Of a stretch of 64,000 nucleotides of DNA, positions 42,220 through 64,000 are shown piece after piece (within the stretch, counting starts at the first letter, position 1; each line of letters opens with the position of its first letter). The stretch is from Bacteroidota bacterium (lineage in GTDB: Bacteria; Bacteroidota; Bacteroidia; Flavobacteriales_F; PHOS-HE28): the NCBI GenBank assembly GCA_018267055.1, contig JAFDZF010000061.1, positions 24,739-88,738 of the forward strand. Direction: 5' to 3'. Made by a program: the position numbers and the translations under genes. Below the pieces are notes generated by a model that saw only the letters and a list, made by a program, of their open reading frames with translations, did not search any database and had not been told where the DNA came from.

Positions 42220-42296
42220 CCGGTGGTTCGCGAAGCGTGCAAAAGTAGCCGGGTTCCGGGGTGCGCAGGCCGCGCGCCCAAGGGCACACCCGGACC

Positions 42297-45338: not shown

Positions 45339-45755
45339 TCAAGAAGGGTCGGCGGCGGAGGACCAGCGGAGCAGCAGGGCCACCGGGACCATCAGCACGA
45401 GGGCGACAAGCGCGGCGCTGGAACCGCATCCGATACCGATGACCACCGCCGCCAACCGGGGCAGGGATGAGCGCCAGGTGCCCTCCTGCGGCGCGGACAG
45501 CCCTGGGCGGACGAGAAGCGCCACCCCGACCAGCGCAATGCTCAACGGCACCGACGCCCGCACGAAGAGCACGGCCAGCGCCACCAAGGCGGCCAGCACC
45601 GCCAGGTGCTTCGGGGCGCTGTCGCCCGAGGCCCGGCCGACGAGCCCTGCCACGAACGCGAGCAACGCGGCCAGCAGGACGGCGAGCACGCCATTGCCGA
45701 TGTCATACGGGGTGAACGCACCCATCTGGTCGGCCAGCATTCCTTTCAGATCCAT
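45339..45755 (-). CDS. Hypothetical small integral membrane protein
   Basis: 138 aa from the internal ATG 45755, with three or four hydrophobic helices. It is the first gene of the minus-strand CotH/Wzy operon. Confidence 0.5.
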   Translation of the reverse strand: MDLKGMLADQMGAFTPYDIGNGVLAVLLAALLAFVAGLVGRASGDSAPKHLAVLAALVALAVLFVRASVPLSIALVGVALLVRPGLSAPQEGTWRSSLPRLAAVVIGIGCGSSAALVALVLMVPVALLLRWSSAADPS

Positions 45756-45842
45756 GGGCAGGGATTTCGCGGAGCGGAGCGGCCAAATGTAGGCAAGGGC
45801 CCAACCCGCGTTCCCACTACCTTCGGCGCGCCTCTTCCACCG

Positions 45843-48300: not shown

Positions 48301-49088
48301 GCCCTTGGATACCCTGCGCTCTGCTGGTGACCGTTCTGGCCCTGCAAAGCGACCTCTCCGCACAAGTGCATATCGATCGACCCATCCGGCTGGAAGGATC
48401 GGATGCCGCGAACCGTCAGGTCGTCGGCCTGCGTGATGGTGATGGCGAGAGCGACGCCCTGAACGCGGGCACCCTCCGTGCCGCACCCTACCGGTATGCA
48501 GAAGTGGCCGGCACCACGCAATGGGACGTCACCTTGACACCCACAGTGTCCGAAGCACACGAAGGACTTTGCCTGCTACTGCTCAGCAACGATGGGAACA
48601 GCGGCCCGGTCATCATTGGACTAAGCTCGGCAGGGAGCTTCCCTTTGCTGAAAGGGCCTGGTCTCCCTCTCCAGGCCGGAGATGTGCTGCCGGGTGAATT
48701 GGTAAGCGCCGTGTTCGACGGCACCACTTTCCAATTGATCGCCGCCCGAAGACAGGATATCCGCCCCTGCCCTTCAGGCAGCGTAGCCGTGAACGAACAG
48801 TACTGCATCGAGATCGCGCAGCACGATACGGCGGAGTTCGACGTGGCCAGCATCGCCTGCGGGCAACAGAACGGTCGCATGTGTACCTGGTCCGAGTGGT
48901 GGGTCGCCTGTAATAAGCTGAGCACCCTGGGCCTTCAGGACATGGTGGGCGATTGGGAATGGACCAACAATGCCGCCAATGCGGATGGCTACGTGCGCGT
49001 GGTCGGTCAAAGCTCATGCACGCAGGCGGCCACTTCCGTAGGCTGGGGAGGATTGCAGCGCAGCTTCCGCTGTTGCTACCGGCGGTAG
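48297..49088 (+). CDS. Secreted Cys-rich protein, paralogue 3
   Basis: Signal peptide ...LQSDLSAQ. Motifs CPSG, RMCTWSEW, GLQDMVGDWEWTNN and terminal RCC. Confidence 0.7.
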   Translation: MSPWIPCALLVTVLALQSDLSAQVHIDRPIRLEGSDAANRQVVGLRDGDGESDALNAGTLRAAPYRYAEVAGTTQWDVTLTPTVSEAHEGLCLLLLSNDGNSGPVIIGLSSAGSFPLLKGPGLPLQAGDVLPGELVSAVFDGTTFQLIAARRQDIRPCPSGSVAVNEQYCIEIAQHDTAEFDVASIACGQQNGRMCTWSEWWVACNKLSTLGLQDMVGDWEWTNNAANADGYVRVVGQSSCTQAATSVGWGGLQRSFRCCYRR

Positions 49089-49089
49089 C

Positions 49090-50121
49090 TCATCCCAAAG
49101 CCTGGTCGTAGAGCGCCACCAGCCGCTGGTTGCGCACGCGGAGGTCGAACTTCTCCCGCACCACCGCCAGGCTCTCCGCTCCCATCCGGGCCAGCAGCGC
49201 CGGATCGTCCATCAGCTGCCGCACGTGCTCCGCGATGCGGTCGGCGATCGCGTCGCTCGGCACGCCGGCCACCGGCAGCAGCCAGCCGTTGCGCCCCTCC
49301 TGCACCACCTCCGGAAGCGAGCTGGTGGCCGAACAGATCACCGGCAGCTGGGCCCCCATGGCCTCCAGGATGGTGTTGTTGAAGGGATCGCTGAAGGTGG
49401 TGCTCACGAACACGTGCGCCTTTCGCATGAGCTGCAGCAGGCCGGCATGGGGCAGGCCCCGGTGCAGGGTGATGCGCGGGTCCTCCGCGATGGTGCGCTC
49501 GGCCCAGGCGATGTCCTCCGCGGACGGGAACACGCCCCAGTCCACCTCCAGGTTGCTTACGATCCAGAGCTGCGCGTCGGGGCGGCCGAGCCGTTGGAAA
49601 GCCTTGAGCAGCTCCACACCGCCTTTGCGGTAGAACCCGTTGCCGGCGAAGAGGACGGTGAAGCGGCCGGGGTCCTTGGCGCCGGGCAGGTACTGCTCCA
49701 CCGCCCGGTAGATCACGGTCATCTTCGCCGGGTCCACCCCCGCGGCCGCCAGCTTGTCGCGGTTCAGCCCCAGCGTGTGGTGGCTGGTGAACAGCAGCCA
49801 CTTGCAGTCCTTGTCCGCCAGGCGGCGAAGCCCCCACTGGAACAGCGGGTTCCGCTCCGACATCGGCTTGTAGCGCGGCAGATAGCTCTCCACCTCGATC
49901 ACCCACGGGCGGTGGTTGGCCACCACGCTGTTGTAGGTATGGTAGAGGTCGGCCGGCTTCAGCGGGAAGAAGAGCTTGGTGTGCGCGAGGAACTGGCGCT
50001 CGATGTGCAGCACGTGCCAGGGGATGTCCACCATGCGCGAATAGCGGTAGCCCTCCGGCGGATTGCTGAAGCAGTAGTGCTGCCAGTAACGGGTCCGGTT
50101 GCTGATGCCGACGACGCGCAT
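49090..50121 (-). CDS. Glycosyltransferase (GT4-like, GT-B fold)
   Basis: C-terminal GT1/GT4 signature: FVSTTFSDPFNNTILEAMGAQLPVICS...EVVQEGRNGWL. Confidence 0.8.
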   Translation of the reverse strand: MRVVGISNRTRYWQHYCFSNPPEGYRYSRMVDIPWHVLHIERQFLAHTKLFFPLKPADLYHTYNSVVANHRPWVIEVESYLPRYKPMSERNPLFQWGLRRLADKDCKWLLFTSHHTLGLNRDKLAAAGVDPAKMTVIYRAVEQYLPGAKDPGRFTVLFAGNGFYRKGGVELLKAFQRLGRPDAQLWIVSNLEVDWGVFPSAEDIAWAERTIAEDPRITLHRGLPHAGLLQLMRKAHVFVSTTFSDPFNNTILEAMGAQLPVICSATSSLPEVVQEGRNGWLLPVAGVPSDAIADRIAEHVRQLMDDPALLARMGAESLAVVREKFDLRVRNQRLVALYDQALG

Positions 50122-50159
50122 GAGGGGTCCACCGTCCGTGCCCGGACGGGGCGTCGAAA

Positions 50160-51155
50160 TTAGCCGGCCGGCCGTGCCTGGGCCCGGTCGTGCTCCCGCT
50201 CGGCATACCAGGTGTGGAACCGGGCCAGTCCCTCGGGCAGGGCGGTCAGCGGCCGGTAGCCGAAATGGGCGTGGGCCTTGCTGATGTCCGCGTAGGTCTG
50301 GGGTACGTCACCGGGCTGCTCCGGCCGCCGGTCGATCAGGGCGGTGCGGCCGGCCTCCCGCTCGATGGCCGCGATGAGGTCGCGCAGGGGGACGGTATCG
50401 GAATTCCCCAGGTTGTACACCTCGAAGAGCCCGCCCTGGACACGGTCCATCGCCGCGCGCACCCCGTGGATGATGTCGGCGATGAACGTATAGTCGCGGC
50501 GTGTGCTCCCATCGCCGAACTGCTGGATGGGCAGGCCCTCGCTGATCTTCCGGAAGAACTGGTGGATGGCCAGGTCGGGTCGCTGGCGCGGGCCATAGAC
50601 GGTGAAGAACCGCAGCGCGGTCACCTTCAGCCCATGCAGGTGCGCGTGCACCTGCGCGAACTGCTCGGCGGCGAGCTTGGTGGCCGCATAGGGGCTGATG
50701 GGCTGGATGCCGCGCTCGCGCTCCTTCCAAGGCACGTGGGGATCCTCCCCGTAGACGCTGCTGCTGCTGGCCAGGACGAAATGGGCGATCCCCTTCCGGC
50801 GGGCCTGCTCCAGGAGCTTCAGGTTACCGGTCACGTTCACGCGGTGGTAGCCGAGGGGATCGGCGATGCTGGGCCGCACGCCCGCCTTGGCCGCGATGTG
50901 CACCACCGTGGCGCCCGCGGCATCAGCGAACGCCTCCTCCAGCACGGTGTCGTCCAGGATGTCCCCTTCGATGAGGCAGTAGCCCGGGTGGGCCCGGTGG
51001 CCGGCGATGTTGGCCTCCTTCACCGCGCGGGGATAGAAGGGATCGAAGTTGTCGATCGCCGTCACGCGCTGCCCTTCCGCGAGCAGCCGGTCCACCAGGT
51101 GGCTGCCGATGAAGCCGGCGCCGCCGGTGACGATCACGTGACGGGAAGTGCTCAT
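50160..51155 (-). CDS. NAD-dependent epimerase/dehydratase (UDP-glucuronate 4-epimerase-like)
   Basis: [21 protein letters not shown], and YAATKLAAE (YxxxK). Confidence 0.8.
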
Positions 51156-51162
51156 GGCGGGC

Positions 51163-51915
51163 TCAGGCGCGCAGGGCGTCCTTGAGGAAGCCGGGCAGCA
51201 GGGACTTCAGCCGGTACCGGCCCAGCAGGCGCTTGTACTCGGGCAGGTTCTCGCGGTAGGAACGGGCCAGGAACTCGTCCGCATGCACCATGGCGGGATC
51301 GAAGAACAGCCCGAAGACGGAGCGCTCGAGCTTCACCGGCAGAAAGGGGACGCCCTCCCGGCCGAGCCCGCGCACGATGTCCATCAATGCAGGGAAGACG
51401 ATGTAGAGATCATGGAACAGGATGACGCCGCCCTCGGCCAGGCGCGAGCGGCACAGCGCATGGTCGCGCAGCACGGCGGCGCGCGTGTGCTCGCCATCGA
51501 TGAACGCGAGGTGCAGCGGGCGGGCCAGCTGGTCGCGGGGCACGTCCTTCGAATCCATGTCGAAGGTCCTGATCTTCTCCACGGACCCTTCGCCCATGCC
51601 GCGGAGGTTCTGCAGCATCCGCTCGGTGCTGTTGTCCTTGAAGGCCTTCACGAAATCCTTGCCCCGGTCGTCCGGCGCGGTCTGGGGACGCAGGTCGATG
51701 GAGTCGATATGGGCGCAGCGCGGGTCGCGCACGTGCGGCTGCAGGCTCCCGCCCAGGTGCGAGCCGATCTCCAGGTAGTTGTACGCGCCGAACCGCCGGG
51801 CCACGGCGCGCTGCACCGCGAGGAGCGATCGTTTTTCCGCGTCGGAGGTCTGCGAGGGGACGACGTCGAAGACGGAAAGGTCCAGGCCGTCGATCCGTTC
51901 GGTGATGGGGCGCAT
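51163..51915 (-). CDS. Class I SAM-dependent methyltransferase (Methyltransf_24-like)
   Basis: YLEIGSHLGGS and AFIDGEHT...GGVILFHD. Start at the internal ATG 51915. The upstream part of the 562-aa track ORF is antisense to the next gene. Confidence 0.65.
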   Translation of the reverse strand: MRPITERIDGLDLSVFDVVPSQTSDAEKRSLLAVQRAVARRFGAYNYLEIGSHLGGSLQPHVRDPRCAHIDSIDLRPQTAPDDRGKDFVKAFKDNSTERMLQNLRGMGEGSVEKIRTFDMDSKDVPRDQLARPLHLAFIDGEHTRAAVLRDHALCRSRLAEGGVILFHDLYIVFPALMDIVRGLGREGVPFLPVKLERSVFGLFFDPAMVHADEFLARSYRENLPEYKRLLGRYRLKSLLPGFLKDALRA

Positions 51916-52002
51916 GCGGGGCGTGCGGAAAACGAGGCGGAAGATAGACAGGATCCCCCGTGCCCCCCGATGGGAAGGCCCGTCTACCTTCGCCCGCAAC
52001 GC

Positions 52003-53280
52003 ATGCGGACCGGCGAACACCTGCTCATCGTCAGCCATACGTTCCCCCCCTATCGCGGCATCGGCGGGCGGCGCTGGGCCAAGTTCGCCAAGGAGCTGGC
52101 GCGGCGGGGGTACATCGTGCACGTGGTCCACAGCGCGGGCGGCGATGACCTCAAGGGCTCGCTGTGGACGGACGATATCGCGCATCCCGGCATCCGGCCG
52201 CATCCGCTGCCGCAGCGCTACCCCTCGGTGCTGTTCAAGCGGCCGCTCACGTCCTTCCGCGAGAAGGTGATGTACCGGGTGTGGCGGCGCCTGCTCCCCC
52301 TGGTGACGCGCGGCAACTGGCTGGACAAGGGCGTGCGCTGGCGCGGCATGCTGGTGCGGAAGGCGAGCGCGCTGATCGAGGCGCACGGCATCCGCAACGT
52401 GGTGGTCACCGGGGCTCCGTTCAGCCTGATGGCGCACCTCACGGAGCTCCGCACCCGGCATCTCGCTGTGAACCTGGTCGCGGACTTCCGCGACCCGTGG
52501 ACCTGGGGCGACTACTATGGCCAGGGCCTGCTGGGCGAAGCACGCATCGCCGTGGAGCGCGCGCACGAGGCCGCCGTGGCCCGCACCTACGACCGCCTCC
52601 TCTCCCCCGCCCCCAGCATCGTGGAGCATCTCCGCGCCACCTATGGCGGTCCGCCGGAACGTTACCTGCGCATCCCCCACGCGATCGACCCGGAGGAGAT
52701 CGGCACCCACCCCGCTCCTCCCGCCGACGGCCGCTTCCGGATGATCTATGCGGGCAGCCTCTACGGCGCGCAGGAGGCCGAAGCCTATTTCGAGGAGGTG
52801 CTGAAGGCCTTCGAAGCGCTCCGCCGGGACCGCCCCGACCGCTTCCCGCACGTACAGCTAGACCTCTTCATCACCGGCCACGACACTTCGGCCTATGCCG
52901 CACGCGTGGCGGAGCGCGGATTGGTGGAGCACATCCGCTTCCATGCGCCGCTGCCGGCGAAGGACATCTTCCCGCATATCGCTGCGGCCGACCTGGTGCT
53001 CATCTTCATCCCCACGGCGAACAAGGATTTCCTCGGCACCAAGTTCACCGAGATCTTCCACTTAAGGCGACCCGTGCTGCACGTAGGCGTCCCGGGCTTC
53101 GTGAGCACGACCATCACCGGGAAGCGGCTGGGCGGCTCCATCCGGGTGGAAGAGGTGGCCCGGGAACTGCCGCGCATCCTCAGCGGCGAGCGCACCATCA
53201 CCCTTGATCCCACGGTGGACCTGAGCGAGCACCTGCTGGCCACCATCACCGACCGCTTGCTGGCCGAGGTGCTGCGCTAG
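52003..53280 (+). CDS. Glycosyltransferase (GT-B fold, GT4-like)
   Basis: LLIVSHTFPPYRGIGGRRWAKFAKELARRGYIVHVV N-terminal pattern. Alternative ATG at 51970. It is the only plus-strand gene in this block. Confidence 0.65.
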   Translation: MRTGEHLLIVSHTFPPYRGIGGRRWAKFAKELARRGYIVHVVHSAGGDDLKGSLWTDDIAHPGIRPHPLPQRYPSVLFKRPLTSFREKVMYRVWRRLLPLVTRGNWLDKGVRWRGMLVRKASALIEAHGIRNVVVTGAPFSLMAHLTELRTRHLAVNLVADFRDPWTWGDYYGQGLLGEARIAVERAHEAAVARTYDRLLSPAPSIVEHLRATYGGPPERYLRIPHAIDPEEIGTHPAPPADGRFRMIYAGSLYGAQEAEAYFEEVLKAFEALRRDRPDRFPHVQLDLFITGHDTSAYAARVAERGLVEHIRFHAPLPAKDIFPHIAAADLVLIFIPTANKDFLGTKFTEIFHLRRPVLHVGVPGFVSTTITGKRLGGSIRVEEVARELPRILSGERTITLDPTVDLSEHLLATITDRLLAEVLR

Positions 53281-54503
53281 CCGGGCACGGCCACTTCGCG
53301 CAGCAGCCGGAGGGTCTTCTCCGTGGCCACCGGCCAACTGAACAGCTCGCGCACCCGATCGAAGCTGGCCTGTCCCATGCGCGCACGGATGTCGGGCCGG
53401 CGCTCCGCGAAGGCGAGCAGGGCGTCCGTCAGTGCGGCCGCATCCCCGGGCGGAAGCAGGTAGCCGTTGTGCATGTCCACCAGCTCGCGGGTGGCGCCCA
53501 CGTCGCTCACGAAGACGGGCTTGGCCTGGGCCATGGCCTCGAGCACCACGGTGGGCATGCCCTCGAACCGCGTGGGCAGCAGCAGGGCATCGCATGCCCG
53601 ATAGAGCGCGCGCAGGCGGTCATCGTCCACCCGTCCGAGCAGCTCCACGTTCACCGGCAGGCCCGCCTGCTGGTAGGCGGCGAGCAGGGGACCGTCGCCC
53701 GCCAGCTGGAACCGGAAGCGATCACCCCGGCCTTCCGCCACGAGGCGCCGGGCCACGTCCATCAGCACGTCCAGGCCCTTGTTGAAGGCGAAGCGGCCCA
53801 CGAACAGGATCCGCAAGGGCTCCGTCGCGGACCGCGATGGCAGCGGCGGAGGCGCTGCGGGCACATCCACGGCGTTCGGCACCACCACGATCCGGGGCAC
53901 GGCACCGTTCACGAGCGCCTGCAGGATGCCGGTGAGCCGGCCGCCGAGCGAGATGCAGGCCGCGCTGTGCCGCACGATGTACGCCAGCGACCAGCGGAAA
54001 GGCGCGCCCAGCAGCCGCTCCTTCCGGGTGATGCCCTGGAACATCTCCAGGCCATGCGGATGCACCACCAGGCGGTCCCGGTGGCGGGCGATGCCCTTCC
54101 ACACGCAGAAGCCCTGGGAGAGGATGACGTCCGGCCGGAGCGTGTCCAGCGCCTGGTCCATGCGCCCGCTGTAGCGCCAGAGTTCGCGCAGGTACAGCCC
54201 GCGGGGATCGATCGGCGCCACCGGCACTTCGGTGATGCCCAGGGAAGGATCGAAGACGCCCGCCGCGTGCGGATGCAGCACGGTGAGCTGCACCTGTCCG
54301 CTGCGCGCCAGGTGCTCCGCGAGCAGGCGCGAATGCCGCTGCATGCCGCCCACCGCATGTGGGAAAAGACCGTCGGTGCAAAGGGCTACGCGCACGGGAA
54401 GGATGCTGTGGATGCGCGCGAGGAGGAGCGGCGGATCGTCCGCACCGGGCCCATCGTCCGCATCGCCTTCATCGTCCTTGCAGCAAGGTGGCCACACCGG
54501 CAT
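53277..54503 (-). CDS. Glycosyltransferase family 4
   Basis: GGMQRHSRLLAEHL..., and RFEGMPTVVLEAMAQAKPVFVSDVGATRELV (EX7E). The start is uncertain. ATG 54503 overlaps the upstream gene by 35 nt; GTG 54395 (VRVALCTDG) is the alternative. Confidence 0.8.
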   Translation of the reverse strand: MPVWPPCCKDDEGDADDGPGADDPPLLLARIHSILPVRVALCTDGLFPHAVGGMQRHSRLLAEHLARSGQVQLTVLHPHAAGVFDPSLGITEVPVAPIDPRGLYLRELWRYSGRMDQALDTLRPDVILSQGFCVWKGIARHRDRLVVHPHGLEMFQGITRKERLLGAPFRWSLAYIVRHSAACISLGGRLTGILQALVNGAVPRIVVVPNAVDVPAAPPPLPSRSATEPLRILFVGRFAFNKGLDVLMDVARRLVAEGRGDRFRFQLAGDGPLLAAYQQAGLPVNVELLGRVDDDRLRALYRACDALLLPTRFEGMPTVVLEAMAQAKPVFVSDVGATRELVDMHNGYLLPPGDAAALTDALLAFAERRPDIRARMGQASFDRVRELFSWPVATEKTLRLLREVAVPG

Positions 54504-55392
54504 CGATGCTCCACTGCGGCTCCCAGCCCGTGGCCTGCTTGAGCTTGCGCACGTCGGCGAGCAGGTGCGGGCGCTCCACCTTGCGCACGCGCGCCGGGTC
54601 CACCTCGATCCGCAGCTCTTCGCCGAGCTGGCGCTGGAAGGCCTCCACCACCTCACGCACGCTGTACTCGATGCCGCGGCCGATGTTGAACACCTCGAAG
54701 CCTTGCAGCGCCTTGTCCAGCAAGGCGCCCATCGCACGGCCCATGTCGGCGGTGTGGATGTAATCGCGCTTGGGGTCGAGGTTGCCGAGCTTCAGGGTAC
54801 GGGCACCGGCCAGCACCTGGCGCTGGATCTCGGGAAAGAGGTGCGGGTTGGTCTCGTTGGGGCCGAAAGCATTGAAGAACCGGCCGACCACCACCGGGAT
54901 GCGGCTGCGCAGGTGGAACTCGCTCGCGATCTTCTCAGTGGCCAGCTTCGTGGTGCCGTAGATGTCCATCGGTCCCAACGGATGCTCCTCGCCCAGCGCA
55001 CCTTCGGCCACGGGATAGACCGCGGCGGTGCTGGCCACGAACACCTGTTCCAGGCTGCCCTTGCTCCCCGCCGTGTCCAGCACGTTGATGGTGCCGTTGA
55101 TGTTGATGTCCGCGGCCTCGGCCGGGTGCTGGTTGCAATAGGGGATGAAATGGACGGCGGCCAGGTGCAGCACCCAGTTGGGACGGGTGGCGTCCATCAC
55201 CTGCTGCACGGCATCGCGGTGCCGGATGTCCACCTGGAAGAAGCGCGCATCGGGCACACCGGCCAGGGCCCGCTTGCCGAAGGAAAGGTCGTCGAGGACG
55301 AAGACCTCGTGGCCGGCCTCCTGGAGCTGTGCGCTGAGGGCCGACCCGATGAAGCCGGCACCGCCGGTGATGAGGACCTTCTTCGGCATCAT
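54469..55392 (-). CDS. NAD-dependent epimerase/dehydratase (GalE-like SDR)
   Basis: [20 protein letters not shown], and YGTTKLATE (YxxxK). Start at ATG 55392. Confidence 0.8.
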   Translation of the reverse strand: MMPKKVLITGGAGFIGSALSAQLQEAGHEVFVLDDLSFGKRALAGVPDARFFQVDIRHRDAVQQVMDATRPNWVLHLAAVHFIPYCNQHPAEAADININGTINVLDTAGSKGSLEQVFVASTAAVYPVAEGALGEEHPLGPMDIYGTTKLATEKIASEFHLRSRIPVVVGRFFNAFGPNETNPHLFPEIQRQVLAGARTLKLGNLDPKRDYIHTADMGRAMGALLDKALQGFEVFNIGRGIEYSVREVVEAFQRQLGEELRIEVDPARVRKVERPHLLADVRKLKQATGWEPQWSIDAGVATLLQGR

Positions 55393-55438
55393 GGATCCCG
55401 CCTGGCGGCGGACAGGCGCGAAAGTAGGCCGGTCGCGC

Positions 55439-56578
55439 TCAGCTGGCCATCGCTTTCCGCACGGCCGCATAGTCGGCCTCGAAGGCCTGCTTGGTGAACC
55501 GCTGCCGGGCGTACCGCTGGAGCCGCTCCTTTTCCCCGGGCAGCACCTTCTGCAGCACGGGCGGCCCGGAGCCGGGGTCGAACACCAGGCCCAGGTCATC
55601 GGCCTCCACCTGCGCGCTGAAGTCGCCGAGCCGCGGGGAAATGATGATGCGCAGGCCGGCCGCCAGGTACTCGGCGAACTTGGTCGGCGAAGCCACGCGG
55701 TTGGTCACCGTGTCCTCGCGCACCAGGATGCCGTGGTCGCCGGCGCAAAGCACCTGCTGCACCGCGTCCGGCGAAAGCCAGGAGCAGTGGATCCGTCCGG
55801 GGAACGCTTCGGCCAGGGCATCCACTTCGGCCGCGCGGCGGCTGAGGAACACGACATGGGCCCGGGGATCCGCGTGCAGGGCCCGGGTCAGCAACGCTTT
55901 CAGCAGCGCGAAGGACTGCCATCCGGCGACGGAGCCGGAATAGACCAGCAGCACCGCATCCGGCGGGATGCCGGCGGCAGTGGTCCAGGCGGACGCATCC
56001 GTCGCAGGGATCCGTTCATGGTCCTTCCCCAAGGTGCAGGGGATCACCACGTGGTCCTCTCCCCGGTATCCGTAGCGCTCCCGCCAATGGTCCACCAGGG
56101 CATGGCTCACCGCGATGCGAAGGTCGCTCCGGCCCACGGCCGCTTCTTCCAGCGGCCGGAACCCGGCGATCAAGGCCGCGTCATCGATGATGCGGTATTC
56201 CTCCCACTCCGCCGCGTAGGCGCCCCGGCCGTCGAAGCATACCCGCCGGACGAGCCCGCGGTCGCGCATGCGCAGGGCCATCCACGTCGCCATCACGCCG
56301 CGGGCGATGATGCCCGTGGGGCGCAGCAGGCGGCACACCGCGGCCAGGACGGGGATGTTCCATTTCCAACGGCGCATGGTGGGCACCATCGGCAGCACCC
56401 AGGCCGAAGGGCTGTGCGCCTTGATCGCGCGTCGCGTCCGCCGGAAACCGCGCGCGCTGACGAAGGCCACCAGCCGCACACGCCCCCCGCCCGGCGTGTC
56501 CAGGTGCGCGACCACGTCGGTCACCTGGCTCCAGTAGACGCCGCTCGGCTGGTCGTTGTAGGTGAGGTACAGGATCAC
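55439..56578 (-). CDS. Putative glycosyltransferase (GT-B-like)
   Basis: Size and position in the locus, plus the C-terminal ASPTKFAEYLAAGLRIIISP pattern resembling the GT1/GT4 acceptor half. This is a weak motif-level call. Confidence 0.5.
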   Translation of the reverse strand: MILYLTYNDQPSGVYWSQVTDVVAHLDTPGGGRVRLVAFVSARGFRRTRRAIKAHSPSAWVLPMVPTMRRWKWNIPVLAAVCRLLRPTGIIARGVMATWMALRMRDRGLVRRVCFDGRGAYAAEWEEYRIIDDAALIAGFRPLEEAAVGRSDLRIAVSHALVDHWRERYGYRGEDHVVIPCTLGKDHERIPATDASAWTTAAGIPPDAVLLVYSGSVAGWQSFALLKALLTRALHADPRAHVVFLSRRAAEVDALAEAFPGRIHCSWLSPDAVQQVLCAGDHGILVREDTVTNRVASPTKFAEYLAAGLRIIISPRLGDFSAQVEADDLGLVFDPGSGPPVLQKVLPGEKERLQRYARQRFTKQAFEADYAAVRKAMAS

Positions 56579-57666
56579 AGCACGCGGTCAAGAACGTCGA
56601 ACACCCGTTCCGTGGCGTGCCCGTCCCAGAGCGGGGGCACCGTGCCCGGCTTGAAGCGGCCCGAGCGGATGCGGCCGATGGCATCGGCCAGGCGGTCCAG
56701 GTCGAGGTCGATCAGCTCGTTGGTGCCGGCGGTGATGGTGATGGGCCGCTCGGTGTTGGGCCGCAGGGTGAGGCAGGGGATCCGGCGGTAGGTGGTCTCT
56801 TCCTGGATGCCGCCGCTGTCGGTGATGACGAAGGCGCAGGTGGCGATGAGCTTCTGGAAGCCGAAGTAGTCCATGGGCTCATGCATCCGCACGTTCTTCA
56901 GGCCGGAGAAGCGCTCCAGCAGGCCGTAGCGGGCCAAGTTGGCGGTGGTGCGCGGGTGCACGGGGAAGACCACGGGATGCTCCCGGGCCACGAAGGCCAC
57001 CAAGTCCACGAGGCGGGCCAGCTGTTCGGGCACGTCCACGGTGGCGGGGCGATGGATGGTCATCAGCACATGCCCGCCGGTGCCGAGGCGCAGCTCCTCC
57101 AGCACGGGCGACGCCTGGATCCGGTCCTCGTAGGCCACGAGGGTATCGATCATGGTGTTGCCCGTGAAATGGATGCGCGCGGGGTCGCGGCCTTCCGCCT
57201 TCAAGTGGTCGATGCCGCTCTGCTCGGTCACGAAGAACGCATCGGTGATGCGGTCGGTGAGGATGCGGTTGATCTCCTCCGGCATGCCCGTATCGCCGCT
57301 GCGCAGGCCGCTTTCCAGGTGCGCCAGCGGCAGGCCCATCTTGTTGGCCACCAGCGCGCCGGCCAGGGTGCTGTTCACGTCGCCCACCACCATCAGCATA
57401 TGTGGGCGCTCTTCGGCGGCCACGCCGGCGAGGGCGGCCATGATGTGGCCCATCTGCACGGCGGGTGCGCCGGGCGGCGTATCCAGCCAGTGGTCGGGGG
57501 CCAGGCCGAACTGCTCGAAGAAGACCGTGCTCATCCGGTCGTCGAAGTGCTGGCCGGTGTGGACCAGCCGCACGTCGATGCCGCCACGGGCCGCGGCCAC
57601 GTGCTTGAAGCGGGTGACCTTGATGAAATTGGGCCGGGTGCCCACCACCACCATCAGCTTCCTCAT
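56575..57666 (-). CDS. wecB: UDP-N-acetylglucosamine 2-epimerase (non-hydrolysing)
   Basis: VVGTRPNFIK, HLESGLRS, and ITDSGGIQEE. Start at the internal ATG 57666. ATGA overlap with the upstream gene. Confidence 0.9.
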   Translation of the reverse strand: MRKLMVVVGTRPNFIKVTRFKHVAAARGGIDVRLVHTGQHFDDRMSTVFFEQFGLAPDHWLDTPPGAPAVQMGHIMAALAGVAAEERPHMLMVVGDVNSTLAGALVANKMGLPLAHLESGLRSGDTGMPEEINRILTDRITDAFFVTEQSGIDHLKAEGRDPARIHFTGNTMIDTLVAYEDRIQASPVLEELRLGTGGHVLMTIHRPATVDVPEQLARLVDLVAFVAREHPVVFPVHPRTTANLARYGLLERFSGLKNVRMHEPMDYFGFQKLIATCAFVITDSGGIQEETTYRRIPCLTLRPNTERPITITAGTNELIDLDLDRLADAIGRIRSGRFKPGTVPPLWDGHATERVFDVLDRVL

Positions 57667-58256
57667 CCGAGCACGGGCTTCTGGCTGCGGGTGGCGATGA
57701 TGTATTCGCGGGAGCCGGTGTCGCTGATCTTCCGCGCGGGCGCCCCGGCGATGGTCATGTTGCCTTCGGGGAACGAGCGGTTCACCACGCTGTTGGCACC
57801 GATGGCCGTGTCGGGCCCGATGACGATGTCGCCGAAGATCTTGCTGCCGGGCCCGATGTAGCAGTTGTCGCCGATGGAGGGCACGCGTTCCTCGGGGCCG
57901 GGGCGGGTCCCGATCACCACGTCCACGTGGAGGCGGCAGTTGGCCCCCACCCGCGCGTCGGGATGCACCACGATGGTGCCGCGGTGCGCGATGCTGAGCC
58001 CGGGACCGAAGACGTTGGGCGGGATGTCGAACCCGCAGCGCACGCTCTGGGCATGGAACCGCAGCGAGTACCACTTGTGCAGCAGCCGCCAGAACGGGCC
58101 CCGGTGCTTCTTGCAGTTGGTGAGGTACTCCACCCGGCGGAGCAGCCGCTGGAACTTCCACACCTCATCGTAGATCAGGTGCACGCTGTAGGTGCGCCGC
58201 AGGGCGATGCGGTCCGCCTCGCGGTAGTCGAGCATGTCCTGGTGCGAGGCGATCAT
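57663..58256 (-). CDS. Hexapeptide-repeat (LbH) O-acetyltransferase, serine-acetyltransferase-like
   Basis: Hexapeptide repeats: IGDNCYIGPGSKIFGDIVIGPDTAIGANSVV. Confidence 0.8.
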   Translation of the reverse strand: MIASHQDMLDYREADRIALRRTYSVHLIYDEVWKFQRLLRRVEYLTNCKKHRGPFWRLLHKWYSLRFHAQSVRCGFDIPPNVFGPGLSIAHRGTIVVHPDARVGANCRLHVDVVIGTRPGPEERVPSIGDNCYIGPGSKIFGDIVIGPDTAIGANSVVNRSFPEGNMTIAGAPARKISDTGSREYIIATRSQKPVLG

Positions 58257-59191
58257 GGGCGCTTGCCCCGCACCACGCCGAGCAGGCGCTCCGTGGTGGC
58301 GAAGCCGAACAAGTTATGGAAGAGGGCATAGCGCTCCGTGATGGCGCGCCCCACTTCCGGGGTGAAGCCGCGGCCGATGCTGCGGCGATACTCGGCCACG
58401 GCCTTCCCGCGGTCGTGCGGGGCCACGATGCGCAGCGCCATGAAGATGTACTGCCGCAGGGCCTCGATCTCCGCGGCATGGGCATCGGCCCCCAGCGCGG
58501 TGAGGTGGTCCTTGATGGCGCGCCGCAGGGCGATGTAACGGTCCCAGTTCTCCATCACGTCGGTGCGGCTGATGGAGCCGGTGGCCCGCTTGAGCACCCG
58601 CGTGCGGATGTGGCGGTCCCAGGCAACGCGCGCCCCGCCCTTCAGCAGGCGGAACGCCAGTTCATAGTCCTGGCTGCTGGCCAGCTGCTCGTTCCAGCCG
58701 CCCGCCCGCTCCAGCGCCGCGCGCCCCCACAAATTGGCGCTGGTGGTGCCCAGCCGGGTGCGGATCAGCGCCATCCAGGGCCGGTCGTACAGGGCCAGGG
58801 CGGGCAGCAGCAGGCCGTCGGGCATCACCTGCTCGAAATCGCCCACCACCAGGTCGGGCCGGCCGTTGGCCTCCGCCAGGGCCACCTGCGCAGCGATCTT
58901 GTCGGGGTCCAGCCGGTCGTCCGCATCGAGGAACTGCACGTACGCGCCTTCGGTGGCGGCCAGGCCGGCGTTGCGCGCGGCGGACGCCCCCCGGTTGGGC
59001 TGCTCGATGCTGCGGAGCCGGCCGGAGGACCGGCGGACGTGCTCCGCGATGACGGCCCGGGTGGCGTCGGTGCTGCCGTCGTCCACGCAGACCACGTCCA
59101 GGTCGGCGTGCGTCTGGGCGAACACCGAGGCGAGGGCCTGGGGCAGGTGTTCAGCGACGTTGAAGCAGGGGATGACGACGGCGACCCGCAT
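58253..59191 (-). CDS. Glycosyltransferase family 2
   Basis: VVIPCFNVAEHL, VDDGSTD, and FLDADD (DxD). Confidence 0.9.
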   Translation of the reverse strand: MRVAVVIPCFNVAEHLPQALASVFAQTHADLDVVCVDDGSTDATRAVIAEHVRRSSGRLRSIEQPNRGASAARNAGLAATEGAYVQFLDADDRLDPDKIAAQVALAEANGRPDLVVGDFEQVMPDGLLLPALALYDRPWMALIRTRLGTTSANLWGRAALERAGGWNEQLASSQDYELAFRLLKGGARVAWDRHIRTRVLKRATGSISRTDVMENWDRYIALRRAIKDHLTALGADAHAAEIEALRQYIFMALRIVAPHDRGKAVAEYRRSIGRGFTPEVGRAITERYALFHNLFGFATTERLLGVVRGKRP

Positions 59192-59266: not shown

Positions 59267-59755
59267 CTAATGCCCTTCCGTGGTGGACGGCTCCCGATCG
59301 GTCCGTCTCCCCCGCCCCAGCGCCGCTGCCAGCACGAACAGCAGCGGCACGGGGTACTGGAGCATGTGGAGCACCTGCACCGAGACGCGCTCCAGGGCCG
59401 GCACCCAGTGCGCCAGCCCATGCAGGACCAGCGCCAGCACCGCGAAGGCGATGGTCGCCAGCAGGATCGCGCGGGCGTGCCGGAAGGAACCGAAACACGT
59501 CCGCGCCAAGGCGATGGTGAGCCCGCACATGGCAGCGATGAAGGCGCAGGCCAGCGCCCACTTCAGCACCAGCAGCCCACGCAGGCCCAGGCCGCCCGTC
59601 CATCCCTGGAAGAGCGAGTGCGCATAGGAGAAGGCCGTGTGCCGCGCCACATGGTCGAGCTGGTAGTTCAGGTTGAGGAAGAGGAACTCGCGCAGCGCGC
59701 CCAGGGCCACGCCGGCCAGTATCAGCAAGAGCACCAGGCCGCGGCGCGCGCTCAT
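59267..59755 (-). CDS. Exosortase F system-associated membrane protein
   Basis: 162 aa with four hydrophobic helices, translationally coupled (ATGA) directly downstream of xrtF. This is the invariant genomic partner position. Confidence 0.65.
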   Translation of the reverse strand: MSARRGLVLLLILAGVALGALREFLFLNLNYQLDHVARHTAFSYAHSLFQGWTGGLGLRGLLVLKWALACAFIAAMCGLTIALARTCFGSFRHARAILLATIAFAVLALVLHGLAHWVPALERVSVQVLHMLQYPVPLLFVLAAALGRGRRTDREPSTTEGH

Positions 59756-60306
59756 GGCCGGGGCCGGGCGGCCGGAGCGAAGCGTTTCACCCACACGTAC
59801 CAGAGCAGGAAGACCCAGCCATAGACGATGACATAGAAGGTATAGTCGTGGTTGAAGTTCAGCCACTCGTAATCGATGCGCACGATGATGCAGAGGGCCG
59901 CCACGCGCAAGGCGTTCACCAGGTGGATGGACAGCAGGCCCAAGGCGCCGAACCAGAGCTTGTGCCTCCAGGGGCCCGCATAGGCGATGAGGAAGACCAG
60001 GAACACGGCGAAGAGGCCCACCCCGTTGCAGGGATCGCCGATCCAGAGCAGGTGCCCGCCCTCGACCCCGATGGTGCGGAGCTGCTCCGCGTTGGCCGGT
60101 TCGGGGATGAGGGTGTAGCCGAGCGCGCGCAGGATGGCGCCGGACCACCGGATGAGCTGGTCGATGACGGCCCGGTCGAGGGCGCCCCAGGGATGGAGCA
60201 CCAAGGCATAGAGCAGGTACCAGCCGGCATAGAGCGCGGCCGACAATAGAAGGAAGCGGACGAGCGGGTCACGTCCCGCCGAGGCAGGGGACGCGTGGGC
60301 GGGCAT
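59752..60306 (-). CDS. xrtF: Exosortase family protein XrtF
   Basis: 184 aa, polytopic, with candidate catalytic residues Cys (IGDPCNG), Arg (VNALRV) and His (NFNHD) in exosortase order. Short Bacteroidota-type form. Start at the internal ATG 60306. Confidence 0.8.
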   Translation of the reverse strand: MPAHASPASAGRDPLVRFLLLSAALYAGWYLLYALVLHPWGALDRAVIDQLIRWSGAILRALGYTLIPEPANAEQLRTIGVEGGHLLWIGDPCNGVGLFAVFLVFLIAYAGPWRHKLWFGALGLLSIHLVNALRVAALCIIVRIDYEWLNFNHDYTFYVIVYGWVFLLWYVWVKRFAPAARPRP

Positions 60307-60554
60307 CAAAGCACGCGCTTGCGGGCCTGCCCGCCGGACAGGCGGGCACGTCGGGCATCCAGGGCCTTCTTGCCGCCGAGCAGTACGCCAGCGCCGATCA
60401 GCAGGGAAAGACCGCCGTCGATGGGGATGCAGGGCGGGGGCCAGCAGGGCGGCTGACCACCGACGGGAGGCCCGCCCGTCTGGGCGAGCAAGGAGCCCAT
60501 GAAGGGAACGGCTGCGAACAGCAGTACCAGGGTCGCACGGGATACCGTCCTCAT
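60306..60554 (-). CDS. 82-aa pre-protein: signal peptide + Pro/Cys-rich 20-mer + PIDGG-TM-basic C-terminal sorting-like signal
   Basis: MRTVSRATLVLLFAAVPFMGSLLAQ | TGGPPVGGQPPCWPPPC | IPIDGG-LSLLIGAGVLLGG-KKALDARRARL... About 80% G/C at third codon positions. Its stop overlaps the xrtF start (TGATG). Confidence 0.6.
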   Translation of the reverse strand: MRTVSRATLVLLFAAVPFMGSLLAQTGGPPVGGQPPCWPPPCIPIDGGLSLLIGAGVLLGGKKALDARRARLSGGQARKRVL

Positions 60555-60579
60555 GGTCGCTAGAGCAATGTGAGCGTGC

Positions 60580-60587
60580 CAAATGTA
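60580..60587 (-). promoter_or_regulatory. Candidate -7 promoter box TACATTTG for the mini-ORF/xrtF operon
   Basis: Exact TAnnTTTG match on the minus strand, 26-33 nt upstream of ATG 60554. Confidence 0.4.
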
Positions 60588-60782
60588 GAAAGATCACCGA
60601 ACGGACTTCCAGCGGCCCGTGCTCATTTCTATCAACGATCCCCAGGCCCCGCGGGCGCCCGGGCCCGGGCACGTCGCGATCGGCCCGCGGCGAGGCGCGA
60701 TGCATATATTCGCAGCCTTCCAAGAAAGCGGCACCGGGCGCTGGCGGCAGCGGCGCAGGCGCCTCCCCCCGAAGCGAGCACT

Positions 60783-63191
60783 ATGGCAGCAGCGGCAGGC
60801 CCCAAAGCGGGGATCATCGACGTCAACGACCTCCGCTACTTCCTCCGGATCTTCTCGAAGAACTGGTACTTCGTGGTGGTGGCCGTCATCCTCTCGGCCG
60901 TCCTCTCCTACCTCTACTCCTACAAGATCCCCGACGTGTACGGGGCCAGCACCCAGATCCTCCTACAGGACCGGGAGTCGTACAACTACCAGACCCAGGT
61001 CTACCAGAACATCGGTTACGTGGGGGCCTATGGCGACATCGTGAACCAGAAGCGGGTGCTCACCAGCTATGACCTGATCGACCGCACGCTGGACAAACTG
61101 GATTTCGACGTCTCATACTACATCATCGGCCGGTTCAAGACCTCGGAGGTCTATGGCTCGCTTCCGTTCTCGGTGCAGATACAGCCCTTGAACGCCAGGC
61201 TTTTCGAGAAGCCGTTCGACCTGCGGATCGTGGATGCGGACCAGTTCGAGCTGAGCTACGATCCTGGTTCAGGGCTGGTGACCAAGACATTCCCGTTCAA
61301 CACCGACATCGCGGACAGCGATTTCACCCTTCGCGTGCAGAAGACGCAGCAGCTCCTGCCGTCCACCCTGCGGAAGTTCAGCGAGAGCGATTACCGTTTC
61401 ATCCGGCATGGCAGGCCCTGGCTGGTGGCCAAGTATGGCTCGGGCATGGACGTGGTGAACCTTGACTACACCACCATCCTTCATGTGACGGTGGAGGACG
61501 AGATCCCCGCACGGGCGAAGATGTTCCTGGATACGCTCAGCCAGGAATACATCCGCTATACGCTGCAGAGCGAGTTCGACATCAATGAGAACACGCTAGG
61601 CTATATCGACAAGCAGCTGGATGAAGTATCGGTGATCCTGAACAATTATGAGGACGATCTGCAGCGCTTCATGCTGAGCAAGAACATCCTCGACCTCGGC
61701 AAGGAGAACGACCGGTACTTCGACCAACTGGTGGGATACGATTCCCGGAAACGCCAGCTGGAGATGATGATCGAGAGCGTGGACGCGCTGGAGAACTACA
61801 TCCTGGCCCTGGGCGATGAGAAGCTCATCCCGCCTTCCTTCTATATCCTGGATGACGATGTATTCCTGAAGAGCACGCTGACCGAGCTATATACCATGCA
61901 GATGGACCGGAACCGGAAGCTGTACGACGCCACGCCGGACAACCGGGCCATCAATACCTTGGATGAGACCATTCAGCTCACCCGGGCCAACCTTCTGGTG
62001 TACTTGAAGAACACCCGCAAGGCCATACGGGAAAAGATCGCTGACGTGGAGAAGCAGATCAGCGATTACAACCAGCTGATCCGGGCGGTGCCGCAGAACC
62101 AGCGGGACATCCTGAACTTCCAGCGGAAAGTGAGCGTGAACGAGCGGCTCTATGAGTTCCTATTGGAGAAGCGGGCCAATACGGTGATCGCACGCGCAGG
62201 CATCATCCCGCAGACGAAAGTGATCGAGGCGGCCCGGATCCTGGGCGTTGTACGGCCGGACAAGATGAAGATCCTGTACACCTTCGCTATCGGCGGTCTT
62301 CTCATCTCCATGGTGCTGGTGTTCCTCCGGGTGCTCTTCTATGACCGCCTCGAGAACGCCGACCAGCTGCGCCAGGTGACGCAATTGCCGGTGTTCGGCG
62401 AGATCATCGCCAGCGAGAAGGCCGAGGAGAACTACGTGGTGGTGGACAGTGACCCGAAATCGGCCATCACCGAGAGCTTCCGTACGATCCGCACCAACCT
62501 GGAGTACCTGCCGGCCACCGAGCAGGGCAAGGTGGTGATGGTGACGAGCTACCGCCCGAACGAAGGCAAGACCTTCTGCTCGGTGAACCTCTCGGCCATC
62601 CTGGCCAAGGCCGGGAAGCGGGTGCTGCTGCTCGAGCTGGACCTGCACAAGCCCAAGGTGGCGGTGGGCCTGGGCATGAACAGCGCGGTGGGCCTCAGCA
62701 ACATCCTGGTGGGCAAGGCCGGGTTCGAGGAGTGCATGCTGCCCACCCAGATCGAGAACTTCCACGTAATCCTCTCGGGCCCCACGCCGCCGAACGCCTC
62801 GGAGCTGGTGCTGAGCAAGCGCCTGCCGGAGCTCTTCGAGTTCGGGCGCCGCCACTTCGACTACGTGCTCATCGACACTCCCCCCGTGGGCCTCATCACC
62901 GACGCCCTGCTGATGATGCGCCATGTTGACGCCACCCTCTTCGTGATCAACACGCGCTTCGCCAACAAGGACCACATCCGGAACGCGCTCGAGGTGCACC
63001 AGAGCAACGCGGCGAAGAACTTCGGCTTCATCCTCAACGGCGTGCGGATGAAGAAGAGCAAGTACTACTACAACACCAACTACGGCTACGGCTACCGTTA
63101 CGCCTACGGCTATGGCTACGGGTACGGCTACGGCAACAAGGGCCGCAAGAGCGAACAGCGCCGCGCCTCGACCAAGAACCAGAACACGTGA
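60783..63191 (+). CDS. wzc: Polysaccharide-biosynthesis tyrosine autokinase (Wzc/GumC-type chain-length determinant + BY-kinase)
   Basis: N-terminal TM + Wzz-like periplasmic coiled-coil region + second TM. Walker A VTSYRPNEGKT, Walker A' LLLELDLHKP, Walker B VLIDTPP. C-terminal Tyr cluster. Start at ATG 60783. Confidence 0.9.
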   Translation: MAAAAGPKAGIIDVNDLRYFLRIFSKNWYFVVVAVILSAVLSYLYSYKIPDVYGASTQILLQDRESYNYQTQVYQNIGYVGAYGDIVNQKRVLTSYDLIDRTLDKLDFDVSYYIIGRFKTSEVYGSLPFSVQIQPLNARLFEKPFDLRIVDADQFELSYDPGSGLVTKTFPFNTDIADSDFTLRVQKTQQLLPSTLRKFSESDYRFIRHGRPWLVAKYGSGMDVVNLDYTTILHVTVEDEIPARAKMFLDTLSQEYIRYTLQSEFDINENTLGYIDKQLDEVSVILNNYEDDLQRFMLSKNILDLGKENDRYFDQLVGYDSRKRQLEMMIESVDALENYILALGDEKLIPPSFYILDDDVFLKSTLTELYTMQMDRNRKLYDATPDNRAINTLDETIQLTRANLLVYLKNTRKAIREKIADVEKQISDYNQLIRAVPQNQRDILNFQRKVSVNERLYEFLLEKRANTVIARAGIIPQTKVIEAARILGVVRPDKMKILYTFAIGGLLISMVLVFLRVLFYDRLENADQLRQVTQLPVFGEIIASEKAEENYVVVDSDPKSAITESFRTIRTNLEYLPATEQGKVVMVTSYRPNEGKTFCSVNLSAILAKAGKRVLLLELDLHKPKVAVGLGMNSAVGLSNILVGKAGFEECMLPTQIENFHVILSGPTPPNASELVLSKRLPELFEFGRRHFDYVLIDTPPVGLITDALLMMRHVDATLFVINTRFANKDHIRNALEVHQSNAAKNFGFILNGVRMKKSKYYYNTNYGYGYRYAYGYGYGYGYGNKGRKSEQRRASTKNQNT
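63063..63134 (+). repeat. Imperfect TAC-GGC hexanucleotide tract encoding the BY-kinase tyrosine cluster
   Basis: Codons TAC TAC TAC AAC ACC AAC, then nine (TAY-GGN-like) units, giving YYYNTNYGYGYRYAYGYGYGYGYG (12 Tyr in 24 aa). Confidence 0.7.
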
Positions 63192-64000
63192 GCGAGCAGG
63201 GCCGCACCGCGGGGCATGCCCACCTTGCAGATGACTGGGATGTCGTCATCCGCCCCCACCGCATGTTCTGGCACCTGGACCTGAAGGAGCTCTGGCACTA
63301 CCGCGACCTGGTGGGGCTGCTCACCCGGCGGGACATCGTCACCGTGTACCAACAGACCGTCCTAGGGCCGCTCTGGGTACTCCTGCAACCCCTGCTCACC
63401 ACCTTTGTCTTCACGCTGGTGTTCGGCCGGGCGGCCGGACTGGCCCCTCCCGGCCTGCCACCGATGCTCTTCTACATGTCGGGCATCGTGCCATGGTATT
63501 TCTTCTCCACGGTGATCACCAAGACCTCGCGCACCTTCATCACCGGGGCGCAGATCATGAGCAAGGTGTATTTCCCCCGGCTGGCGATGCCGCTGAGCAG
63601 CACCCTTTCCACCCTCTTCACCTTCGCCGTACAGTTCGTCGCCTTTCTGGTGATGCTGGCCATCTATGCGGTGATGGACCCCGGTTTCCACTGGCAGGCC
63701 CTTCCGGCATTGGCCCTAGTACCCATGCTGGTGCTATTGATGCTGCTCCTGGGCCTGGGCCTCGGCATCCTCATCACGGCCATCACCACGAAATACCGTG
63801 ACCTTTCTTTCCTCGTGGCCTTCGGCGTACAGCTGCTCATGTATGCCAGCCCCGTGCTCTTCCCGATGGCGCGCCTGCAGCAGATGCCCCTGCTGCTGGC
63901 TCTGTTCCGCCTCAACCCCATGACCGCGCCCATCGAGGCCACGCGAGCCGCATTCTTCGGCGGCCCACTGCCCTGGGGAGGGCTGCTCTACACCACGGTG
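63188..64000 (+). CDS. ABC-2 type polysaccharide/O-antigen export permease (Wzm/KpsM-like), 3'-truncated by the window edge
   Basis: Not in the ORF track because it has no stop in the window. The frame is open from GTG 63188 (GTGA overlap with the wzc stop) to nt 64000. LKELWHYRDLVGLLTRRDIVTVYQQTVLGPLWVLLQPLL is the classic ABC-2 N-terminal motif, followed by TM helices. The first in-frame ATG is at 63263. Confidence 0.8.
   Translation, partial: MSEQGRTAGHAHLADDWDVVIRPHRMFWHLDLKELWHYRDLVGLLTRRDIVTVYQQTVLGPLWVLLQPLLTTFVFTLVFGRAAGLAPPGLPPMLFYMSGIVPWYFFSTVITKTSRTFITGAQIMSKVYFPRLAMPLSSTLSTLFTFAVQFVAFLVMLAIYAVMDPGFHWQALPALALVPMLVLLMLLLGLGLGILITAITTKYRDLSFLVAFGVQLLMYASPVLFPMARLQQMPLLLALFRLNPMTAPIEATRAAFFGGPLPWGGLLYTTV

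Follow-up and report, generated by a model that had tools for sequence, protein, structure and literature searches.

Which exosortase is encoded by three short open reading frames (ORFs) next to the polysaccharide genes of an uncultured high-GC Flavobacteriales bacterium, and on what would it act? The ORFs lie on the minus strand (60554-59267) of a 64,000-nucleotide stretch of contig JAFDZF010000061.1, referred to here as the window, and they encode a mini-protein of 82 amino acids (aa; ORF1), a polytopic membrane enzyme (ORF2) and a second membrane protein (ORF3). The comparisons described below indicate that this cassette is probably a dedicated PID-CTERM/XrtX sorting system, with one enzyme serving one target, that heads a Wzc-associated polysaccharide operon. 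ORF1 has no cargo domain, and the functional product is proposed to be the short peptide itself.

ORF1 carries a predicted PID-CTERM sorting signal

ORF1 (60306..60554, minus strand), for which gene callers return the identical 82-aa gene, reads in full order MRTVSRATLVLLFAAVPFMGSLLA|QTGGPPVGGQPPCWPPPCI|PIDGG-LSLLIGAGVLLGG-KKALDARRARLSGGQARKRVL. Its hydropathy profile contains a single N-terminal and a single C-terminal hydrophobic segment. A signal peptide was called at residues 1-24 (60554-60483) from the hydrophobic segment (residues 7-23, followed by LLA|Q) and the conserved A|Q context. The predicted exported peptide, QTGGPPVGGQPPCWPPPCI, comprises residues 25-43 (60482-60426) and is 19 aa long, close to the mature part of about 20 aa anticipated in an earlier note on this DNA. 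The predicted PID-CTERM sorting signal then extends over residues 44-82 (60425-60309) and is made up of PIDGG, a transmembrane (TM) helix and a Lys/Arg tail; the TM helix was placed by hydropathy at residues 43-59, the helix sequence after PIDGG is LSLLIGAGVLLGG, and it is followed by the basic stretch KKALDARRAR and the stop codon (60308-60306). This analysis reproduced the architecture that the earlier note had described, namely a signal peptide, a Pro/Gly stretch with CWPPPC, PIDGG, a helix and a Lys/Arg tail. The basic tail of the window protein (ending RLSGGQARKRVL; 60309-60340) is about 10 residues longer than in the 71-72 aa consensus of its clade, and the same longer tail is present in a 96%-identical database protein (P0121).

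ORF1 passed the NCBIfam PID_CTERM model NF046080, which is 25 positions long, by a narrow margin (27.1 bits against a cut-off of 26, residues 44-65). The PID-CTERM model that the earlier note half remembered is therefore real, and it has a Pfam counterpart (PF28310). In precomputed annotations PF28310 is assigned, weakly, to the protein encoded by a near-identical copy of this gene on another contig, and also to ORF1 homologues; the local Pfam copy contained no model matching ORF1. PID_CTERM was the sole NCBIfam hit at E<=1, and the PEP-CTERM model (TIGR02595) was not matched.

The window sequence indicates that the three ORFs are translationally coupled. At the TGATG junction the A of the ORF1 TGA doubles as the A of the ORF2 ATG (a 1-nt overlap), and the start of ORF3 overlaps the ORF2 stop through ATGA (59752-59755, 4 nt). 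Third-codon-position GC content (GC3) is 0.80 in ORF1, 0.90 in ORF2 and 0.91 in ORF3. TAnnTTTG is the established consensus for Bacteroidota sigma-A promoters, and a -7 box of this type, TACATTTG, was located at 60580..60587 (minus strand), 33 to 26 nt upstream of the ORF1 ATG. The consensus was found 19-46 nt 5′ of the ORF1 ATG in 71 of 75 orthologous loci, where about 1% per locus is expected by chance. The ORF coordinates, both junctions, the third-codon G/C of about 80% in ORF1 and the upstream box thus all agree with what had been read from this DNA before.

ORF2 matches the exosortase XrtX

ORF2 (59752..60306, minus strand) encodes a 184-aa protein with about five hydrophobic, predicted TM helices. 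The best NCBIfam model was exosortase X (XrtX, NF046081), passed marginally with 170.8 bits against a cut-off of 170; the second best was XrtF (TIGR04128), with 78.4 bits and below its cut-off of 90. The exosortase/archaeosortase signature TIGR04178 was also passed (48.1 bits against 23). For Pfam PF09721 the local score was 15.9 bits (cut-off 25.7), and the precomputed annotation lists this family for ORF2 and its homologues. The XrtF identity first given to ORF2 was consequently rejected, since the TIGR04128 cut-off was not reached and XrtX is ahead by more than 90 bits. Public labels on the enzyme are 'XrtF' at JGI and 'archaeosortase/exosortase family protein' at NCBI.

The putative catalytic residues are Cys93 (60030-60028), Arg134 (59907-59905) and His153 (59850-59848), all on the minus strand, within the motifs DPC93NG, NALR134V and NFNH153D. 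Alignments with 24 close and 22 distant homologues showed that the three residues are invariant. Together with the TIGR04178 match, this bears out the earlier description of a short polytopic exosortase with Cys, Arg and His in order. Because the catalytic residues are invariant, a substrate is implied, in keeping with a dedicated sorting system. An AlphaFold2 (AF2) model depicts an all-helical membrane protein (predicted local distance difference test score, pLDDT, 86.9). No entry in the Protein Data Bank is related to XrtX by sequence, and the AF2 model had no significant Foldseek neighbour, the best match (V-ATPase c-ring subunits, E 1.0) being meaningless.

The mini-protein is conserved in close relatives

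XrtX homologues of at least 62% identity are abundant in uncultured Flavobacteriales. A close set of 80 loci was assembled from GTDB species-representative genomes, 78 of them with upstream DNA. All 78 contain a small ORF directly upstream of XrtX, whose end lies 0-39 nt ahead of the XrtX match or runs into its start; an overlap of stop and start like that in the window is present in at least 39 of them. An ATG at the expected distance was found in 75 sequences (74 loci and the window), giving proteins of 68-82 aa, and the other four loci were without one.

The 14-codon core block PPCWPPPCIPIDGG is identical in 68 of the 75 sequences. Within C-W-P-P-P-C-I-P-I-D-G-G, from C to D-G, the lone exception in this set is an Ile-to-Val change at the Ile of P-I-D. 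Almost all synonymous codons of the core block are in use; for Pro, CCA, CCC, CCG and CCT occur 13, 22, 22 and 18 times. The amino acids are thus invariant while the synonymous codons vary freely, which argues that selection acts on the ORF1 peptide and not on the DNA. A small ORF at all 78 loci, with a core kept in this way, goes far past what chance would give. Conservation also reaches beyond the core. The signal peptide ends in Ala in 100% of the close orthologues, with Gln following in 87%, an A|Q of the kind described by the Bacteroidetes Q-rule, which concerns substrates of signal peptidase I (PMC5837995). The TM helix holds an invariant Leu, an invariant Ala and two invariant Gly, and the tail is conserved as well.

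These observations bear on the suggestion that ORF1 is a chance frame in high-GC DNA, of which high-GC windows yield many, or a regulatory upstream ORF whose peptide is irrelevant. We regard this suggestion as refuted by conservation and give it practically no weight: orthologues were recovered at 143 loci spanning 28-70% GC, their amino acids are held constant over freely changing synonymous codons, and ORF1 passes a curated hidden Markov model (HMM). In a search of 5.8 billion proteins, 164 homologues of ORF1 were found, and the 120 listed are all 67-129 aa long.

Distant relatives define a wider signature

Scanned in full with HMMER, 1.84 billion representatives of clusters at 50% identity yielded 1045 XrtX relatives, 379 of them clusters at E<=1e-10. 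Among the best 150, 20 distant representatives were classified, and for all 20 XrtX was the best model (124-189 bits). A distant set of 80 metagenome loci (GC 28-50%; marine, freshwater and sludge) was then compared, in which the XrtX relatives are about 30-51% identical to the window protein; 76 loci were informative, the other four having no upstream DNA. A PID mini-ORF was found directly upstream of XrtX at 65 of the 76. A small ORF ahead of the enzyme, the synteny proposed as a check in the earlier note, was thus found in close and distant relatives alike.

The distant loci yielded 52 distinct mini-proteins, of which 50 are 58-82 aa long, one is cut by a contig end and one has no recorded length. 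They combine a signal peptide, a Pro/Gly stretch, C-[WIFVN]-P-P-P-C-[IVM]-P-[IVF]-D-G-G, a helix and a Lys-rich tail, and the cysteine pair is kept in 50 of the 52. On these alignments the true signature is C-x-P-P-P-C-x-P-x-D-G-G. Two mini-proteins are atypical: one (L144) reads C-D-G-P-F-G-P-V-C-P-I-D-G-G, with the cysteines spaced wider, and the other (L158) has a single cysteine in N-C-N-P-N-I-P-I-D-G-G. Both are natural variants that could reveal whether the Cys pair is required.

Across the mini-proteins the exported segment measures 13-20 aa; 44% of its residues are Pro, 18% Gly and 13% Cys, and Ser and Thr are nearly absent. A classical Ser/Thr-rich glycosylated cargo was rejected on this composition.

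ORF3 is a candidate XrtX partner

ORF3 (59267..59755, minus strand) encodes a 162-aa protein with four hydrophobic peaks in its hydropathy profile. It aligned over its full length with the XrtX-associated membrane protein model NF046082, below threshold (29.9 bits, E 3.8e-7, cut-off 75). A partner ORF is present downstream of XrtX in all 80 close loci, and an HMM built from the close clade recovered the ORF downstream of XrtX in 58 of 59 distant loci. These distant partners score 27-75 bits on NF046082. Taken together, the E-value, the full-length alignment, the gene position and the intermediate sequences support homology of ORF3 to the NF046082 family despite the missed cut-off. As it stands, the equivalog cut-off of 75 bits misses nearly all of the partner proteins tested (27-75 bits; ORF3 and the downstream ORFs of L083-L159).

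No match of ORF3 to the XrtF-associated model TIGR04127 was found at E<=1, and a homologue search with ORF3 returned nothing beyond unnamed 'hypothetical' proteins of the same clade. Of the earlier view of ORF3, the four TM helices and the role of conserved partner were upheld, and the XrtF-associated identity gave way to NF046082. The partner at one distant locus (L083) is the only distant partner that touches TIGR04127 (E 1e-3), which hints that the XrtX- and XrtF-partner families may be related.

The cassette is linked to wzc

A Wzc-like polysaccharide co-polymerase/tyrosine kinase gene (60783..63191, plus strand; 802 aa; Pfam Wzz, GNVR and AAA_31) diverges from the cassette. In the close set, 73 of the 74 loci with a hit have such a gene on the opposite strand upstream of ORF1, about 200 nt away, so that the conserved module runs in the order divergent Wzc-like gene, mini-protein, XrtX, partner. 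Judged by the 379 clusters at E<=1e-10, this module is widespread in Bacteroidota.

Downstream of the cassette, 49090..59191 (minus strand) is occupied by polysaccharide-biosynthesis genes recognised by Pfam hits: GT2, a hexapeptide acyltransferase, a UDP-GlcNAc 2-epimerase, GT4 and a dehydratase/epimerase, and further GT1, a methyltransferase, an epimerase and a second GT1. These genes are a variable context outside the conserved module, any single one being common to only 1-21 of the 80 close loci.

The linkage to wzc and glycosyltransferase genes could be taken to favour the version of the earlier note, in which XrtF is the enzyme of the cassette and polysaccharide is built on the mini-protein as a carrier or primer; among the curated models, moreover, none is closer to XrtF than XrtX, and one distant partner weakly matches the XrtF-associated model. 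For the carrier or primer role itself, the one relevant observation is the conserved divergent wzc neighbour. Against this version, the enzyme falls short of the XrtF cut-off and scores more than 90 bits better as XrtX, conservation of the cassette does not extend to the glycosyltransferases downstream, and the exported peptide offers no Ser, Thr or Asn glycosylation sites. An XrtF primer system is accordingly very unlikely.

Evidence for a single target

In the six-frame translation of the window, PIDGG followed by a helix and a stop occurs once. Across about 1.3 Mb of fetched loci and the window, each locus had at most one PID-CTERM signal, and none of the signals sat on a long ORF. One adjacent target is the defining trait of dedicated one-to-one sorting systems (Haft 2023, bioRxiv 10.1101/2023.06.07.544157), and this adjacency was found at 78/78 close and 65/76 informative distant loci. 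The earlier note had counted an absence of other proteins with the signal against the proposal; this does not apply, because dedicated systems have, by definition, just one target next to the enzyme.

Several points weigh against a dedicated system. In the source genome the count of one target covers 64 kb, and in the relatives it covers flanks of up to 12.5 kb. At 11 of the 76 informative distant loci (L081-L087, L104, L112, L145 and L150) no PID ORF was found within 5 kb, so that adjacency has exceptions; the enzyme may act on different targets or on ones encoded far away. XrtX is barely above its cut-off (170.8 against 170) and ORF3 is well under its own (29.9 against 75). The near absence of Ser and Thr from the exported segment weakens the analogy with glycosylated exosortase substrates. 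Finally, expression, cleavage and an acceptor are predictions from sequence.

The XrtX-like genes of nine PID-less loci (L145, L150 and L081-L087) retain an intact Cys/Arg/His triad, and their target may be encoded elsewhere, lost or different. Two of these loci (L145 and L150; 4853-5498) keep the divergent wzc and the partner, with an intergenic gap of only 124 nt. The group L081-L087 adjoins secG, and in L082, whose ORFs were listed, no partner follows XrtX.

A proposed route from mini-protein to exported peptide

The anatomy of the locus suggests the following sequence of events for the dedicated PID-CTERM/XrtX system. The promoter 26-33 nt upstream would drive ORF1, xrtX and orf3 as one coupled unit. 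After export of ORF1 through Sec, signal peptidase I would cut it at LLA|Q, and the new N-terminal Gln would probably be cyclised to pyroglutamate; the cut and the cyclisation are proposed because A|Q is conserved and conforms to the Q-rule. As the tripartite architecture suggests, the C-terminal helix would then tether the peptide in the inner membrane, with the Lys/Arg tail in the cytoplasm. At the periplasmic face of the membrane, XrtX (Cys93/Arg134/His153) would recognise the C-W-P-P-P-C-I-P-I-D-G-G block and, by analogy with archaeosortase A and rhombosortase, might cleave in or beside P-I-D-G-G through an acyl-enzyme. More speculatively, the Pro/Gly-rich peptide of about 19 residues, probably closed into a disulfide loop, could be transferred to an envelope acceptor or released. 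A lipid head-group or the polysaccharide of the locus is a candidate acceptor, and the four-TM ORF3 might assist.

A more specific form of this proposal is that XrtX covalently transfers a ribosomal peptide of about 16-19 residues, pyroGlu-(Pro/Gly)n-[Cys-Trp-Pro-Pro-Pro-Cys]-Ile-Pro-Ile-Asp in disulfide-looped form, onto a lipid or the Wzc-dependent polysaccharide. We consider it unlikely. If true, a surface glycoconjugate or lipopeptide would have as its stoichiometric building block a genetically encoded mini-peptide and not a protein, the first minimal and chemically synthesisable exosortase substrate would be at hand, and the kind of cryptic target to seek in substrate-less XrtF systems would be indicated.

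The functional unit that is conserved is a short peptide; it carries a Cys pair, and its core is invariant. One-step transpeptidation by exosortases and archaeosortases is not settled (bioRxiv 10.1101/2023.06.07.544157). Both points could suit a purely hydrolytic XrtX, a maturation protease that frees a Pro-rich disulfide-loop signal or bioactive peptide of about 2 kDa, resembling a ribosomally synthesised and post-translationally modified peptide (RiPP). The setting argues otherwise: the cassette heads polysaccharide loci and diverges from wzc, pointing to a role in the envelope or in exopolysaccharide (EPS), and the conserved module is without RiPP-typical modification enzymes. Among characterised analogues the nearest are the archaeosortase ArtA and rhombosortase, and both leave behind an adduct of the lipid type (reviewed in bioRxiv 10.1101/2023.06.07.544157). 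Hydrolytic release is on balance unlikely.

Conservation that continues into the TM helix (the Leu, the Ala and two Gly) and the tail is typical of protein-protein contacts, and it raises the question of whether ORF1 instead stays in an XrtX-ORF3 complex, perhaps including Wzc, as a stable subunit or regulator that spans the membrane once, with its PID docked in the active site without turnover. Stoichiometric, translationally coupled expression would fit such a subunit, as would the XrtX-like loci that function without an adjacent mini gene. A docked subunit is difficult to reconcile, however, with the invariance of the XrtX catalytic triad and with an ORF1 that has the complete architecture of a cleavable signal and passes a curated sorting-domain model; conserved TM residues also occur in genuine dedicated signals, for example JDVT-CTERM (bioRxiv 10.1101/2023.06.07.544157). 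We therefore judge this explanation to be quite unlikely, and the dedicated sorting of a processed mini-protein is retained.

Comparison with known sorting systems

The curated PID-CTERM/XrtX system (NF046080, NF046081 and NF046082; PF28310) has the same three products in the same order as the window. ORF1 and ORF2 pass the corresponding cut-offs, whereas ORF3 is far under; since ORF3 misses its cut-off and XrtX is marginal, the clade of the window is a divergent branch of the XrtX system. Annotation pipelines mostly label this clade 'hypothetical', 'archaeosortase/exosortase family' or 'XrtF', and the name 'PID-CTERM protein-sorting domain-containing protein' already stands on one public record of an ORF1 orthologue. 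No relevant paper on PID-CTERM or XrtX came up in literature searches. The cassette thus belongs to a system that is curated in NCBIfam and Pfam yet unpublished and uncharacterised. New relative to the searchable literature, and documented here from alignments, are the extended invariant C-x-P-P-P-C signature and the absence of a cargo domain.

The XrtF system of Flavobacterium johnsoniae (TIGR04128, TIGR04127) is similar in that a small polytopic partner comes after a Bacteroidota exosortase of about 175-185 aa; in this organism, biofilm formation and surface colonisation depend on both XrtF and the partner (PMC10936215). In contrast to XrtX, which has an obvious adjacent candidate, XrtF is without a known target protein (PMC12188702, PMC10936215). 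The JDVT-CTERM system with its CPBP-type myxosortase (Haft 2023, bioRxiv 10.1101/2023.06.07.544157) shares a single target adjacent to and co-oriented with the enzyme, conserved residues within the TM helix of the signal and a cysteine in the signature region. It differs in using a glutamic CPBP protease where the window has a Cys/Arg/His exosortase, and the window target has two cysteines (C-x-P-P-P-C) and consists only of its signals and a 13-20 aa linker.

The PEP-CTERM/XrtA (EpsH) system (Haft 2006, PMC1569441) has the same tripartite signal of motif, TM helix and basic tail on proteins with an N-terminal signal peptide, and its exosortase likewise lies within an EPS locus with chain-length-determinant and glycosyltransferase genes. 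It is a one-to-many system whose cargo is often Ser/Thr-rich and whose exosortase has at least eight TM helices; the window, by contrast, combines one target bearing P-I-D-G-G with an enzyme of 184 aa and about five TM helices.

The outstanding questions of exosortase chemistry concern the cleavage site, the identity of the acceptor and transpeptidation, which as a one-step reaction of exosortases and archaeosortases is still unproven (bioRxiv 10.1101/2023.06.07.544157). The XrtX system would be about the simplest imaginable test-bed for them, because a small exosortase is paired with a single adjacent target that exports 13-20 residues with an invariant core. Given no more than a synthetic or tagged peptide and two membrane proteins, mass spectrometry should be able to locate the cut and reveal the acceptor. 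The cassette is thus a possible minimal model for exosortase chemistry and a pointer for substrate-less XrtF systems (PMC10936215, PMC12188702). As to annotation, current curated cut-offs miss most partner proteins, and pipelines mislabel the enzyme as XrtF.

Other features of the window

The window has a GC content of 67%, and no tRNAs were found in it; despite the high GC, its one Rfam hit, described below, fits an origin in Bacteroidota. Directly after the Wzc-like gene, an ABC-2 type (Wzm-like) permease gene (~63200-64000, plus strand) runs off the window; the locus therefore mixes export components of the Wzc type and the ABC-transporter type. Inside the polysaccharide region, four consecutive plus-strand ORFs at 45606-49088 encode proteins of 379, 260, 280 and 263 aa. 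Codon bias is gene-like in the first two (GC3 0.84 and 0.80), and Pfam gave no match at E<=1e-5 for any of the four.

At the far end of the polysaccharide region (39742-45331), two CotH-kinase-like ORFs (39742-42387 and 43673-45331, minus strand) flank an ORF resembling Wzy_C/O-antigen ligases (42297-43676), and the second CotH-like ORF adds chitobiase-C/Fn3-associated domains. The sole Rfam hit in the window is a small signal recognition particle (SRP) RNA of the Bacteroidales type at 1417-1523 on the plus strand (RF04183, 102.6 bits).

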